DNA of 64,000 bases from an uncultured delta proteobacterium (GTDB lineage Bacteria; Desulfobacterota; Desulfobacteria; Desulfobacterales; JAHEIW01). Location: NCBI GenBank assembly GCA_963706575.1, contig CAVPNL010000006.1, positions 640,001 through 704,000 on the forward strand, read 5' to 3'. The position numbers were made by a program. This document shows, in pieces, positions 21,001 through 30,000 of the stretch. Numbering within the stretch: position 1 is the first letter of the stretch; each line of letters begins with the position of its first letter.

Positions 21001-24000
21001 ATTTCTTTTTCTAAAAAGCATCGAACGAATAAGGGTTTTGTGATGGCGCCTGAAAAGGGCATGATCGTCTTGATGGGCTCCGGTGAGCTGACCGCCACCA
21101 TGGTCGAGGTTCACAAAGAATTGCTGCGGCAGTTCGGGGCGGCGGCCAAAGCTGTTTTTTTAGATACGCCGGCCGGTTTTCAGCTCAACGTCGACCAGAT
21201 TTCCCAGAAAGCCCGGGAGTATTTTCAGACCCATATCGGGCAAAGCCTTGCGATTGCGTCTTTTAAGTCCAATGATACCATTTCCCCTTTTGAAGCCGAG
21301 CAGGCCCTTCAAACGCTGCGGAATGCCGATTTTGTCTTAATCGGTCCCGGCAGCCCAACTTATGCGGTGCAGCAGTGGCAGCAATCCGCCATACCGCAAA
21401 TCCTTACCGGCCGCATCAGGGAAGGCGGGTGCCTGGTGGCCGCCAGCGCCGCCGCTTTGACCGTCGGCCGCTTTACCCTTCCGGTCTATGAGATTTACAA
21501 GGTCGGTCAGGATTTACACTGGGTCGATGGAATGGATATCCTCAAGGATTTCGGTTTCAACCTTGTCGTGATACCGCATTGGAATAACGCCGAGGGCGGC
21601 ACGCATGATACCCGCTTTTGTTTTATGGGTGAACCGCGCTTCGGGCAACTGGTCTCCTTGCTGCCGGAAGATGTTACCGTTTTGGGCTTGGATGAGCACA
21701 CCGCCTGCATATTAGATTTTGAAAACGACGAAGCCGTCATCAAAGGCATCGGCCAGGTCACCCTGCAACACGCAGGACACCAGATCGTTTTTAAAACCGG
21801 CGACCGGTTTTCACTTGATGTGCTTCGCGGCAAAGATCGGGGTGGGAATTGGCAGCCGACATCCCTGGTGCCGGAAGTTTCAGAAACGGATTCAGCGGTG
21901 GAGGCAGACGCATTCTGGGATCAAATCCACCGGCTTGAGACTGTTTTTTATGAAGGGCTTGAGACCCACGCAGCCCGCAAAACCACCAATGCCTTGCTGG
22001 AACTGGATCGGATGATCTGGAAGGCGCAGCAGGATTTGGAAAACGAGGAATTTATCATCCAGGCGCGCGACACCCTGCGGGAGCTGATTGCGGTATTGGG
22101 CACCCGGCTGGCTGCCGCGCCGCTCAGTGAAACCGATTGTCTGGCGCCGCTCGTCCAGCAGTTGCTGGGTGTGAGAGAAAACTTTAGGCAGCAAAAACAA
22201 TTCGAAGAAGCCGATGCCATCCGGGACAGCCTGCAGCGCGCAAACATTATCATAGAGGACACCGAAACAGGATCCCGCTGGCGACTGGGGTCTTAAATAA
22301 GGGTTCAGAGGTTCAGGGTTCAAGGGTTCAGAGGTTGGTTAATAGAAAACAGAGGTCAGAGGACAGATGACAGATGGAAACCGGAGAGAAGGGCGGCCCT
22401 GTGCCCGGCGCGGCGAAGTCTCAGGCGAAGACCGGTGGCCGCCGGTTAGGTCGGCACAGAGGCCGACCCTACTTTTTGTCATTATCTAACCTCTGAACCC
22501 AGAACCCGGAACCCGGGAACTGACACCTGAACACTGAAACCGCATTCACAAAGTCCGGAGAATTAATGACGATGTTTACCCATCCCCCTTTATCGATTCT
22601 GGCCATTGCAGCGGAACACCATCCGGAGCTGCTTTCTTTGTTTTCTTATCTTCGATCCATTTCTCACCTCGAACTCAGTGTCAACTGCGAAATTCCAGCG
22701 GACTTAAGGCCCTATGATGTCATTATTACCGCCGACACCGCCGGTTTTGACGAAGGCGGCGATCATCTTAGCCGGTTTGTTGACAACGGCGGCGGCTGGC
22801 TGGGACTGGTTCAAGTATCCGATAAACCATTGCCCGAAATTTTCGGGGCTCAAACCGGCCAGATTGGACCGGCGGCTGAATTGCGCGTGATGTTTGTTGA
22901 TCCAAATCATGGCATGGCCAAACGTTTGCCCGGCGCCCTGTATCTTAACAGCATTTACCAACCCCTGGCGCAGCAGGCGGATGGCGCCGAGCCGATCTTG
23001 TATGCCGACTGGCATTATAACCATAGCCCGATGTTGCTTGCGCGCACGGTCGGAGAAGGAAAAGTCGCCTGCACAACGCTTCAAGCTTATAATGAACCCG
23101 CTTTTCAGCAAGTTCTCTATCGCCTCCTGCGCTACCTGGCGGGCTACAATGATGGCCATCATTCGCTGGGTGTCGGACTATTAGGTTATGCGCCGTCAGT
23201 CGGCAAAATACATGGTTTAGGCGTCCAGGTGACCCCCGGATTGGAATTAAAGGCCGCCTGTGACCTGAACTCTGAACGCCTGCAGCAGGCCGGGCAGGAT
23301 TTTCCGGATCTGAAAACTTACCAGTCGGTGGATGCATTCGCTGACGACCCCGGCATCGACCTGGTGATCATTGCCACCCCGCCGAATTCCCATGCCAGGC
23401 TTGGCATTCAAATGATGGCCGCCGGCAAGCACGTGGTCTGTGAGAAACCACTGGCGATATCCCAACAAGAAACCGCTACCATGATCGAGATGGCCGAAAA
23501 GCAGAGGGTCCATTTGAGCTGTCATCAAAACCGGCGCTGGGATGTCGACTACCTGGCCATTAAGCAGGCTCTGGCTGAAGGGTCCATCGGGGATCTGTTT
23601 TATATGGAAACCTTTGTGGGCGGCTTCAGCCATCCCTGCGGATACTGGCATTCCCACGACGAAATTTCGGGCGGCCTGGCTTATGACTGGGGAGGACATT
23701 ACCTGGATTGGATCGTGGGGCTGATTCCCGAGCGTATCCAAACGGTCATCTGCACCCGTCATAAGCGAGTCTGGCATGATGTCACCAATGCGGACCAGGA
23801 ACGGATCCAGATCCGATTTACCGGCGGTCAGGAAGCTGAATTTATTCATTCCGATATCGCGGCAGTGCGCAAACCCAAATGGTATTTACTCGGAACCGAC
23901 GGGGCAATCATCGGTTACTGGAAAGATGTGGTCGAATACGAGATGGATCCGGTGGTCTATTTTGAGCAACACGATATTCCCGCAACCGAGATGCCGGCTG

Positions 24001-27000: not shown

Positions 27001-30000
27001 TCCTGGCCCCCACCGACAGGGAAAAAGAAAACCTGTTAAAATACTGCCATACACCTGCCGAAAAAATCGGTGTTGTGCCCTGCGGCGTTAATCTGGATCT
27101 ATTCCGGCCCATGGACAAGGTCGCCGCCAGGCAGCGTTTGGGATTTAAAGAAGATGAATCCATCGTGTTGTATGTCGGCAGATTCGACCCGATCAAGGGG
27201 ATCGACAGGCTGCTGGAAGCCATGGCCCATCTGAAACACCTCAAGCGGACGCGGCTGGTCATCGTCGGTGGTGATGACCCCGGTACACCCGAATATCAGA
27301 ACCTGCGACAGTTATCCGTTAAATTCGGTATTCAGAAATCCGTGCACTTTGTCGGCCGGGTAGAGCAGAACCAATTGCCGCCGTATTACAGCGCTGCGGA
27401 TGCCCTGGTTGTTCCCTCCTATTATGAAAGCTTTGGACTGGTGGGGCTTGAATCACTGGCCTGCGGGACTCCGGTTGTGTCAACCCGGGTGGGTGCCATG
27501 GAGGATGTTCTTGTGGATGGTAAAACCGGCTATGTGGTGGTCGATGCAACTCCCCGCGGGCTGGCCAACAGTATCGAAAAGATCATCTCAAACTCAGCGG
27601 GCTCATTGTTGTCCGCCCATGACATTCGTGGTTCGGTTCTTAAATACGGATGGTCGAATGTCTCGGCGGCGGTTTTTAACGAATATGAAACGATGCTAAG
27701 GGATTCGCTGTCTGAGCCTGCACGGAAGCTCTCCGCTTCCGGGTCTTCGCTCTAAAAAATTTGCCATGTTAACCACTGAAACGGCCTCGAGTCCTGAGCC
27801 GACCGAACAATTTTTGGAGTTACCGGACGGACGGATCCACTACCTGGATTGGGGCGGCGACGGTGTCCCAACGCATTTTCTGCATGGTAACGGATTTTGT
27901 GCGGGGACCTATACACCGTTTATCCAATATCTTGTCGATGATCTTCATATCCTGGCCAGCGATGTGCGCGGTCACGGGGGCTCGGATCAGCCCATGGTCA
28001 AACGCGTCCGTCATTGGGACATTTTTGCAGAAGATTTGAAAATTCTCATCGAGCAAAAGATGTCTCCGCCGGTCATCGGCATCGGCCATTCGCTGGGCGC
28101 CGTCACAACATATATTGCGGCCGCCCAATACCCGCATTTTTTTTCCGGCATTGTTTTGATCGACCCGGTTATTTTGCCGCGCCGGCTGCTGTGGTTAATC
28201 GCAGCACTGAAACTGCTGGGGCTAAGGGGAAATTTACCATTAGCCAAAATGGCCAGGCGCCGACGGCGAATTTTTAAAGGCAAGCAAGAAGCTTTGAGGC
28301 TCTTTGCCGCCGGCCGGGGCATTTTTAAAAACTGGTCCAAAGAATTTGTGCAGGCGTATTTAGAATGCGGGCTTCTCGAAAAAGATGAAAAGACTGCGGT
28401 TTTAAAATGCGATCCGGAGCTCGAAGCCCAAATTTTTGAATCCATTCCGCTGAATGTCTGGCGATATGCGAAAAAAATAAAGTGTCCTGTACTGGCCATT
28501 CGCGGAGAATTATCCGATACCTTCTTTGCTGACGCGGCCCAGCGGCTGGGGGGCATCATTGCCGATTATGAGCTGCAGACCATTCCTGATACCGGACACT
28601 TCCCGCCGATGGAAAAACCGCAGGAAAGCGCCCGCCTTATTTTAGATTTTGTCCATCGAAAATTAAAATCAACCTGAATTCTTGCAAGCGCCGGCAACTC
28701 CCGGGCCCACAATTTGCTAATCTTTTTAAAACCTGAATTGGCTTCATTTGATGAAATCCGGTTATTTTAATATTGACATATCAGGAGGTTCCTGCAATTG
28801 TTAGCTGACTTTTTGAGCTGGATTTAGACGGCTGTGAACCGCGGTCTGAAGGTTGGTTGGTGGATGAAGGGGTTAGTGCTTTGGGGAACCCGCCTTTTTC
28901 AAACCGGGGCTGCACCGGCGGTTTCGTAAAAAACCGTTTCCTTTCTTACACTGTGGGAAATCCGAATTTATATTGATTTTAGATGGTTAACGTTGAAACA
29001 GGTATCGTTCTCCGGCTGTATTCTCAATTTTGAGGCTCTCTATCTCAATCTGGCGATGAAGGTGGCCCTGCCATGGATATGAAAAGGCACTATTACGAAG
29101 ATGTTCAGCTATTTACCTCCGGTGTGATTGTCTTCTGGTTTTGTGCTTTCATCCTTTTTCTGGCCCTGTTTCCTCTCCTTTTTAAAAATTATTATGTCTA
29201 TCTGGCCAATTACATGGCCATTAATGTGATTGTGGCCATCGGCCTCAATCTTCTGGTGGGCTATACCGGGCAGATATCCCTCGGGCACGCGGGATTTTTT
29301 GCAATCGGGGCTTACGGCACGATTGTTTTAATGAGCCAGGCCCATTTTCCGTTCATCGTGGCGCTGCCCGCCGCCGCCCTGGTGGCAGCGCTGTTCGGAT
29401 TTTTGCTGGGATTGCCGGCCCTGCGGCTTGAAGGGCCCTATCTGGCGATTGCCACCCTCGGTTTCGGGCTGACCATTACCCAGGTTATCGGCCGAATCGA
29501 GTTTTTCGGCGGACGGCAGGGCCTGCACGCCCCGGCTCTGACCATCGGTCCCTGGCATCTGGATACGGACATCGATTTTTACTATCTGCTGATAACCCTG
29601 ACGGTGTTGTTAACCATCGCCGCCCGGAATATCATTAAAACCCGTGTGGGGCGGGCCTTTATTGCCATCCGCGATGCGGATATCGCCGCTGAAACCATGG
29701 GGGTTAATCTGGTTCTTTACAAAACCCTGGCCTTTGCGGTCAGCGCTTTTTATGCGGGAATTGCCGGCGGGCTGTACGCCTTTGTCCTGCGGTTTATCGA
29801 GCCGGAGATCTTTACGCTTTTGATGTCGATTATGTTCCTGGCCATGGTGATCGTCGGCGGTCTGGGCTCCATTATGGGCGCCATTGCCGGTGCCTGCCTG
29901 CTTAGCTGGATGGATCTCCAGCTGCGCAATATCCTGAGTATTCCTTACGTGGGTGAATGGCTGGAGGCGCTGTCTCAAAGCTATTTTTCCATAACCGGGA

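Follow-up and report, generated by a model that had tools for sequence, protein, structure and literature searches.

The gene cluster

The window, a 64,000-nucleotide stretch of DNA from an uncultured delta proteobacterium, contains these features:

21043..22296, + strand: fusion of a peptidase S51-like domain with part of cysteinyl-tRNA synthetase (CysRS), 417 amino acids, from matches to PF03575, PF23493 and TIGR00435 and a predicted structure
22449..22468, + strand: terminator-like hairpin, in an intergenic sequence with further copies elsewhere
22566..24224, + strand: Gfo/Idh/MocA oxidoreductase with a fused ThuA-like domain
24217..25228, + strand: second Gfo/Idh/MocA oxidoreductase; in this assembly it carries a frameshift near 25039
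25425..26435, + strand: FemABX-fold double GNAT (PF13480/FemAB_like), possibly starting from the ATG at 25437
26490..27755, + strand: MshA-like GT4 glycosyltransferase, matching TIGR03449 below its cut-off
27766..28677, + strand: alpha/beta hydrolase, directly downstream of the MshA-like gene

As in the initial annotation, the fusion is followed by operon-like neighbors: two Gfo genes, the FemAB-like GNAT, and the MshA-like glycosyltransferase. Two runs from related strains (X1 and X2) each have one contig without the extra base at 25039. The contigs compared, two RNA runs included, are from related strains and say nothing about transcription or a single transcript. Because of the hairpin, co-transcription of the fusion with the following genes is unproven in this genome. 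The evidence for the hairpin is itself weak, since we found 16 terminator-like sites versus 11.2 +/- 3.9 in shuffled sequences; scans for promoters and terminators were at chance level. Contig depth is very high at 22222-22458.

The gene after the fusion encodes a Gfo protein in 34 of 131 loci; ThuA-Gfo seems optional and is possibly involved in turnover of the sugar-inositol moiety. The alpha/beta hydrolase is beside the cluster in just 3 of 132 loci and is probably not a core component. Intergenic gaps are short at many of the fusion's loci, and at others the fusion is often separate from the GNAT and glycosyltransferase genes. The earlier counts (GNAT near the fusion in 57 of 80 loci and an MshA-like gene in 53) were not reproduced because the sets of loci differ: in our 80 metagenome loci, the GNAT was nearby in 23 and an MshA-like gene in 22. 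(In 26 metagenome loci with at least 5 kb downstream, the counts were 15 and 14.)

A hydrolase with an anticodon-binding domain

Residues 8-223 of the fusion match Peptidase_S51 (PF03575, E = 6.5e-7) and residues 367-414 match CysS_C (PF23493, E = 4.4e-7), both above the gathering score. TIGR00435 matches residues 296-414 (E = 7.3e-9) at model positions 344-464 only; judging from this coverage, the fusion has no Rossmann catalytic domain with HIGH and KMSKS motifs. Its CysRS-derived part is the helical bundle and the anticodon domain, corresponding to residues 333-460 of the E. coli enzyme. The best Foldseek matches to the AF2 model (pLDDT 92) are 6nqc, PepE, and cyanophycinase (E = 8e-15 to 1e-10), and the model also matches CysRS-tRNA (1u0b, E = 1.3e-3). 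Pfam, TIGR00435, and Foldseek agree that this is a PepE/cyanophycinase-fold hydrolase joined to the C-terminal part of CysRS, as first annotated.

The catalytic residues, previously described as invariant, are nearly so: among 112 diverse full-length representatives, S135 is conserved in 111, H179 in 112, and E218 in 108 (with the triad numbering taken from PMC9239234). His188 and Arg191 align with His166 and Arg171 of PepE, although whether Arg191 or Cys193 is the counterpart of Arg171 depends on the alignment. Cys193 is near-invariant (104/112), and the motifs PVYEIYK and HDTRFC are specific to the family. A metal site formed by His188, Cys193, His219, and Glu150 is conceivable.

In the anticodon domain, R378, R382, D391, R394, and D406 align with R423, R427, D436, R439, and D451 of E. 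coli CysRS, each of which is conserved in 107-110 of the 112 sequences, versus a median of 43% for the region. R423, W432, and D451 of the E. coli enzyme also have roles in anticodon reading. R427 contacts G34, and mutants exist at D436 and R439 (PMC4536326). S51 enzymes cut N-terminal aminoacyl bonds, including aminoacyl-nucleotide ones in the case of MccG (PMC9239234). The fusion appears to be built for acting on tRNA(Cys). We also considered a dedicated tRNA for the fusion and rejected this: the genome has one tRNA-Cys, and there is none in the scanned loci.

The family is large, with 454 representatives at E = 1e-30; a single-protein search of genome contigs gave 14 close loci. Named carriers are from Desulfobacterota, Actinomycetota, Planctomycetota, and Dormibacteria. 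Presumably, the fusion coexists with MshC in Actinomycetota. A quick tree of 55 fusions follows the family divisions and leaves many forks open; it gives no basis for claims of transfer. In the literature, searched without most subscription papers and without supplements, we found no paper describing an S51-CysRS fusion or a mycothiol ligase of the Fem type.

Genes for a probable mycothiol-like thiol

The window's glycosyltransferase matches the MshA equivalog TIGR03449 as first reported, with E = 4e-96 and a score under the cut-off (322 versus 462.5 bits). The genome's MshD-like, PIG-L, metallo-beta-lactamase-type (MBL), and Ino1 genes are all outside the locus, with Ino1 (inositol-3-phosphate synthase) at position 430562 of contig C3. 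Recurring neighbors of a thiol-related type include Ino1, inositol monophosphatase, HAD, PIG-L, and a glyoxalase-II-like MBL protein; another is a thioredoxin reductase with a fused mycoredoxin-like domain (in this genome, 86.6 bits versus a cut-off of 89.5). The PIG-L homolog L051 scores below cut-off against both BshB1 (99.5 bits) and MshB (47.6 bits), as does the MshD-like homolog L017 against its own family (100.5 versus 163.1). The MshD-like gene is present in this genome and in 2/301 genomes of the phylum overall; the amine of the product may therefore stay unacetylated. In five genomes, BshC was not found at E = 0.001 (control searches were positive), and GshB was not found over the cut-off.

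It is improbable, we think, that the product is another aminoacylated glycoside, such as a compatible solute, instead of an inositol thiol. The GT4 protein is equidistant between sucrose-phosphate synthase (6kih, E = 4e-69) and MshA (3c48, E = 2e-66), every Msh family score is under its cut-off, and ThuA-Gfo resembles genes for trehalose catabolism. However, the GT4 protein retains HSHYWLS and H138-T139 as in MshA, while 6kih has HTNYWLS and H-S. Furthermore, Ino1 (PF01658) was over the cut-off in all five of the pathway genomes tested, and the Ino1, PIG-L, mycoredoxin-like, and MshC-like neighbors also fit poorly with another glycoside.

The statement that MshC is missing stands for this genome, where we found no MshC-like gene, and for the phylum at the TIGR03447 cut-off (0/301 genomes); it needs qualifying in that 3/301 genomes (G025, G063, and G139) have anticodon-less MshC-like genes that score below this cut-off. 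The CysK-CysRS paralog had been suggested as an alternative source of the ligase step, and the genome does have a 757-amino-acid ORF of this kind. However, this paralog is in only 6 of 20 pathway genomes, versus 10 of 10 pathway-negative genomes (chosen for long CysRS-like frames), and it is absent from the families that recur next to the fusion, the GNAT, and the MshA-like gene. We consider this suggestion highly improbable and not supported.

The GNAT as a candidate replacement for MshC

The model of the GNAT aligns most closely with aminoacyl-tRNA transferases: with FemA at Z = 21.7 (rmsd 3.7, 280 aligned positions), with FemX at Z = 21.6, and with Sba18/Sbb17, which have an amino-sugar acceptor, at Z = 21.1, versus 14.7 and 13.2 for MshD. 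Foldseek TM scores concur with this Fem-like ranking; the order of E-values is mixed. The GNAT has a basic helix, R178-H-E-x-R-R183-K184, in which R178, R183, and K184 are invariant in 56 aligned rows; Y317-K318 is also invariant (56/56). The helix resembles the one that FemX uses for tRNA, and K318 resembles FemX Lys305, with this putative equivalence suggested by motif and position. Orf11 is a precedent for forming an amino-sugar amide from an aminoacyl-tRNA, and Cys-tRNA is listed as a donor solely for the PEARL TglB (both from the available portion of PMC12945691).

We profiled co-occurrence across 301 genomes, all of this phylum. An MshA-like gene is in 43 of them, and 41 of those 43 have a GNAT match. 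In the other two, which belong to one genus, an anticodon-less MshC-like ligase occupies the GNAT's gene slot, with a decayed remnant of the GNAT adjoining and the fusion intact. Families f43 and f39 have the order MBL-GNAT-MshA, while f34 has MBL-MshC-like-GNAT remnant-MshA. The f34 remnant is 5'-truncated with in-frame stops, and the f34 fusions retain 18 of 18 checked residues. With the displacement seen in two genomes of one genus, it was probably one event. No fusion turned up in 11 of the 43 genomes, which a profile search confirmed for 10 of the 11. The initial view that the gene set is built round the fusion does not hold: the GNAT tracks the MshA-like gene and decays beside the MshC-like ligase, while the fusion was not detected in 11/43 genomes and is intact beside MshC-like genes.

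Some genomes depart from this pattern. In G139 the GNAT is intact although an MshC-like gene is present at an unlinked site; in G276 the GNAT is broken and an MshC-like gene was not found. Three g50 genomes have the fusion, the GNAT, and PIG-L but no MshA-like gene (best scores 132-142 bits), and 14 genomes with a GNAT match lack an MshA-like gene at E = 1e-50. G043 (97% complete) has the fusion, but we found no GNAT, MshA-like, or PIG-L gene in it.

We also considered that the fusion might itself substitute for MshC, with Ser135 accepting cysteine from Cys-tRNA(Cys) to form an acyl-enzyme, then handing it to GlcN-Ins, while the GNAT acetylates or does something else. The triad and the anticodon reader are both intact, the fusion is often first in the cluster, and the rarity of the MshD-like gene leaves an acetylation step for the GNAT. 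However, this seems quite unlikely given that the GNAT decayed and the fusion stayed when an MshC-like gene arrived, that 11/43 genomes seem to lack the fusion, that G043 has it where three of the pathway genes were not found, and that the GNAT's fold is Fem-like, not MshD-like. These observations point to the GNAT, rather than the fusion, as the substitute.

Or the two proteins could form a two-part ligase, with the fusion responsible for selecting or proofreading tRNA(Cys) before passing it to the GNAT. A GNAT match is in 34 of 38 fusion genomes, with short gaps at many loci; family f30, which lacks the fusion, alone has an extra CysRS-GT2 paralog (6/301 genomes), and protein P0269 combines S51, CysS_C, and GT2. 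We doubt this reading strongly, as the fusion is intact in f34 after the decay of the GNAT and in G043 and G174, and five other genomes with GNAT and MshA-like genes, though fragmented assemblies, showed neither the fusion nor CysRS-GT2.

Proposed pathway

We propose, with a probability of about 0.58, that these genes make a mycothiol-like thiol, with the FemABX-fold GNAT in place of MshC and the fusion as an accessory. We infer the reactions, the product, and the use of tRNA; we observed directly the folds, the conserved residues, the co-occurrence, and the decay of the GNAT beside MshC-like genes. Ino1 would provide inositol-3-phosphate, the MshA-like GT4 protein would add GlcNAc, a HAD protein or inositol monophosphatase would remove the phosphate, and the PIG-L enzyme would deacetylate the sugar. 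The GNAT, most likely a Cys-tRNA-dependent GlcN-inositol cysteinyltransferase, would then move cysteine from Cys-tRNA(Cys) onto the amino sugar, replacing the ATP-dependent MshC. The product would be Cys-GlcN-inositol, N-acetylated only where an MshD-like gene is present. The earlier idea of a mycothiol-like compound with a tRNA-linked cysteinylation is supported by gene content and fold, with the step assigned to the GNAT and not to the fusion. Overall, the original observation is confirmed and its interpretation is partly supported.

For the fusion, we favor an accessory role as a tRNA-Cys-directed hydrolase in editing or cysteine salvage; it would bind tRNA(Cys) via the anticodon and hydrolyze an aminoacyl bond via a Ser-His-Glu acyl-enzyme. 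Tentatively, its substrate may be aberrant aminoacyl-tRNA(Cys), carrying for instance oxidized or S-modified cysteine (trans-editing). A less likely substrate is Cys-GlcN-inositol, which would be cleaved when uncharged tRNA(Cys) signals a shortage of cysteine (salvage). It is unlikely that the fusion transfers cysteine to an acceptor. The tight linkage of fusion and GNAT (34/38 genomes, with Gfo or GNAT as the next gene after the fusion in 50/131 loci) fits a biosynthetic role too.

More broadly, we speculate, at somewhat less than even odds, that in both Desulfobacterota and Chloroflexota a FemX-type enzyme draws directly on the Cys-tRNA(Cys) pool to make a mycothiol-like thiol, and that the fusion represents a new class of serine hydrolase, addressed by the anticodon and coupling this thiol to translation, which clears oxidized, Asp-mimicking cysteine from tRNA(Cys) or frees stored cysteine when tRNA(Cys) is uncharged. 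If so, mycothiol-type redox chemistry is not confined to Actinobacteria but extends to anaerobes of sediments, and there is an additional, tRNA-dependent route to a sugar-cysteine amide. The fusion itself represents a large unstudied family.

Comparison with known systems

Actinobacterial mycothiol biosynthesis (Ino1, MshA, MshA2, MshB, MshC, and MshD) shares Ino1, an MshA-like GT4 protein, a phosphatase, a PIG-L deacetylase, and sometimes an MshD-like tandem GNAT with the gene set described here, as well as mycoredoxin-like and glyoxalase-II-like neighbors. It differs in that most carriers here lack MshC and have the FemABX-fold GNAT in its place, in that just 2/301 genomes have an MshD-like gene, and in that the host is of an anaerobe-type lineage. 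With the FemABX-fold aminoacyl-tRNA transferases (FemX, FemA, DhpH-C, PacB, Orf11/Sba18/Sbb17, and MprF), the GNAT shares the double-GNAT fold (Z = 18-22), the basic helix, and a C-terminal aromatic-Lys motif. Orf11 and Sba18 acylate an amino sugar, as we propose for the GNAT, but its predicted donor is Cys-tRNA(Cys) and its predicted product is a redox thiol.

The fusion has the fold and Ser-His-Glu triad of S51 peptidases (PepE, cyanophycinase CphB, MccG, and 6nqc), to which it adds the CysRS tRNA-binding module, the PVYEIYK and HDTRFC motifs, and Cys193. If the editing reading holds, it shares hydrolysis of aminoacyl-tRNA esters with the trans-editing deacylases (YbaK, ProXp-ala, DTD, and AlaX), whose fold is unrelated and none of which is known to use a serine acyl-enzyme with a borrowed anticodon domain. 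Class I CysRS has the same helical bundle and anticodon domain, along with the Rossmann catalytic domain that the fusion lacks. MshC, a paralog of CysRS, has only the catalytic domain and lacks the anticodon domain, which makes the fusion its structural complement.

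A probable variant of mycothiol-type biosynthesis

The gene set that includes the S51-CysRS fusion (a peptidase S51 joined to the C-terminal part of cysteinyl-tRNA synthetase, CysRS) is real and probably encodes an undescribed form of mycothiol-type biosynthesis. In the open-access literature, we found no account of this fusion or of a Fem-type mycothiol ligase. The set offers a directly testable candidate ligase (the GNAT) and an unexplained hydrolase that would be directed at tRNA(Cys). As the initial annotation claimed, two Gfo genes (ThuA-Gfo and a second Gfo), the GNAT, and an MshA-like gene lie 3' of the fusion:

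Window 21043-22296, plus strand: S51-CysRS fusion, ORF of 417 residues, with Peptidase_S51 at 8-223 and CysS_C at 367-414 (Pfam)
Window 25425-26435, plus strand: PF13480 GNAT with a FemABX fold
Window 26490-27755, plus strand: MshA-like GT4 glycosyltransferase

The second Gfo has a frameshift near 25039; the extra base is absent from related strains. The MshD-like, PIG-L, MBL, Ino1, and Grx-TrxR genes of this genome (G000) are on other contigs or at other sites. In metagenome runs, contig depth is very high over the intergenic regions 22300-22540 and 25290-25390, which are probably a repeated element family. ARAGORN called one tRNA-Pyl and one tRNA-Sec in G000.

Among 301 genomes from the phylum, 38 gave a match to the fusion, 55 to the GNAT (E 1e-30), and 43 to the MshA-like gene (E 1e-50, with scoring limited to 5 candidates per genome); these genomes include kin, so the counts are non-independent and carry no P value. 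A GNAT match is present in 41 of the 43 MshA-like genomes. The fusion is linked to the pathway, because 32 of those 43 genomes have it, versus 6 of the 258 others. Families f43 and f51 have the fusion at a separate site, with the GNAT and MshA-like genes still adjacent.

Several neighborhoods vary. Of 131 loci, 17 have a stand-alone S51 peptidase close to the fusion (such as L015:3963-4664; in G000 it is elsewhere, at C12:115509-116213), and in 13 a nucleoside-phosphorylase-family gene follows the fusion (L061, L064-L069, family f43). In family f56 (L186, L187), a more distant GNAT and a divergent GT4 adjoin Ino1 and may represent a different form of the pathway. In family f30, a PIG-L gene is directly upstream of an ordinary cysS (G157:C21:30693-31280; G021:C1:82062-82646).

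The product

With the MshA model, the GT4 reaches 322 bits (cut-off 462.5), and it is equally close to sucrose-phosphate synthase (6kih) and MshA; it has the MshA-type HSHYWLS and His-Thr motifs. Genes that recur near it encode Ino1, inositol monophosphatase, HAD, PIG-L, a glyoxalase-II-like MBL, and a mycoredoxin-like TrxR fusion. (In G000 the last is at C6:255581-256672, with 86.6 bits against a cut-off of 89.5; at 363 aa instead of ~418 in relatives, this ORF may be truncated.) BshC was not found in five genomes, and no GshB exceeded the cut-off in five (the G021 match has 258 bits). With one query, we found an MshD-like gene in just 2 of the 301 genomes; the product of most carriers may therefore be desacetyl Cys-GlcN-Ins, and Cys-GlcN-Ins could be acetylated in G000.

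An MshC-like ligase probably displaced the GNAT in one genus

No protein from the 301 genomes reached the MshC cut-off. CysRS paralogues in G025, G063, and G139 lack the anticodon domain, match almost the full length of the MshC model, and score 371-377 bits; the highest score for an ordinary CysRS is 342 bits. The earlier statement that the set lacks MshC holds for G000, where no MshC-like gene was found, but is too strong for these three genomes.

The MshA-like genomes without an intact GNAT are exactly G025 and G063. Their gene order is MBL, MshC-like, MshA-like, versus MBL, GNAT, MshA-like in f43 and G068. In both genomes, a profile search located what is left of a GNAT, lying after the MshC-like gene and before the MshA-like one. 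Both remnants are missing the 5' half and have in-frame stops, and the one in G025 is also frameshifted, but the fusions are intact. Therefore the gene made redundant by the arrival of the MshC-like ligase is the GNAT, not the fusion, and the set does not centre on the fusion, as was first proposed. The displacement was probably one event in one genus. G139 has an intact GNAT as well as the MshC-like gene, and the two are unlinked; in G276, the GNAT is broken and no MshC-like gene was found.

The fusion

The Pfam, TIGR00435, profile, and AF2 results agree with the annotated joining of an S51 hydrolase to part of CysRS. The TIGR00435 match is limited to the CysRS C-terminus. A profile of 89 homologues matched S51 peptidase 6nqc at positions 5-257 and solved CysRS structures at 293-415 (E. 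coli 333-460), and both predicted folds were found again from the AF2 model (pLDDT 92; the linker, 276-282, has low confidence). The family has 454 representatives at E 1e-30, and its named members belong to Desulfobacterales, Planctomycetota, Spirillospora, Acidithrix, and Dormibacteria. P0296-P0299 (1142-1224 aa) match the fusion profile and contain SCO/AhpC-type redoxin domains, and P0269 is an S51-CysS_C-GT2 fusion.

By HH alignment, the catalytic triad of E. coli PepE (S120, H157, E192, from a section of PMC9239234) corresponds to S135, H179, and E218. These are retained in 111, 112, and 108 of 112 diverse full-length sequences (P0001 and the 111 of 150 listed representatives with 385-470 aa). 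At the other end, R423, R427, D436, R439, and D451 of E. coli CysRS correspond to R378, R382, D391, R394, and D406, which are kept in 107-110 of the 112 (median for residues 363-415, 43%). We take R423, W432, and D451 to be among the anticodon-reading residues. R427 contacts G34, and D436 and R439 have been targeted (excerpt of PMC4536326). From the sequence, both ends of the fusion look functional, as hydrolase and anticodon reader, and because the anticodon-reading residues are kept, it most likely binds tRNA(Cys).

We did not find the fusion in 11 of the 43 pathway genomes (a profile search confirmed 10), it stays intact next to MshC-like ligases, and G043 and G174 have it although neither the GNAT nor the MshA-like gene was found there. 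It is thus not the obligatory ligase. S51 enzymes cut the aminoacyl bond at the N-terminus, in most cases that of Asp; MccG does this on an aminoacyl-nucleotide (parts of PMC9239234). Our first choice is that the fusion would clear tRNA(Cys) of an aberrant residue; oxidised cysteine, a likely Asp mimic, is an example. Our second is that it would recover cysteine from Cys-GlcN-Ins under the control of uncharged tRNA, the two Gfo enzymes breaking down the sugar; a transfer enzyme comes third.

Further CysRS paralogues are present in the phylum. One, a third CysRS paralogue with a C-terminal GT2-like domain, is in 6 of 301 genomes (G021, G061, G095, G126, G157, and G187, family f30; such as L215:4845-7013); all six carry both the GNAT and the MshA-like gene, and the S51 fusion was found in none of them. 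Another was suggested as a possible source of the ligase step:

G000:C4 ~175688-177961 (L002:1519-3792, minus strand): CysK-CysRS fusion, 757 aa

We found CysK-CysRS in 6 of 20 genomes with the pathway and in all 10 pathway-negative genomes examined, which were picked for long CysRS-like frames; its presence thus does not follow that of the pathway. It is widespread in the phylum, and its CysRS part has WHIKSAAM where CysRS reads WHIEC, so that a zinc-ligand Cys is replaced. CysK-CysRS might charge a cysteine precursor onto tRNA(Cys).

The GNAT resembles Fem-type ligases

We propose that the GNAT would be the cysteinyl ligase of this pathway, standing in for MshC. We infer that the donor residue is Cys because the GNAT is exchanged with an MshC-like enzyme and has thiol-system neighbors. 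The predicted structure (pLDDT 95) aligns best to FemA, FemX, Sba18/Sbb17, and MprF; MshD and other acetyl-CoA tandem GNATs are far lower. According to part of a review (PMC12945691), FemX has a tRNA helix and a catalytic Lys305, and Orf11 is a Gly-tRNA-dependent amino-sugar ligase. The GNAT has kept a basic helix and Y317-K318, which may correspond to the tRNA helix and Lys305 of FemX.
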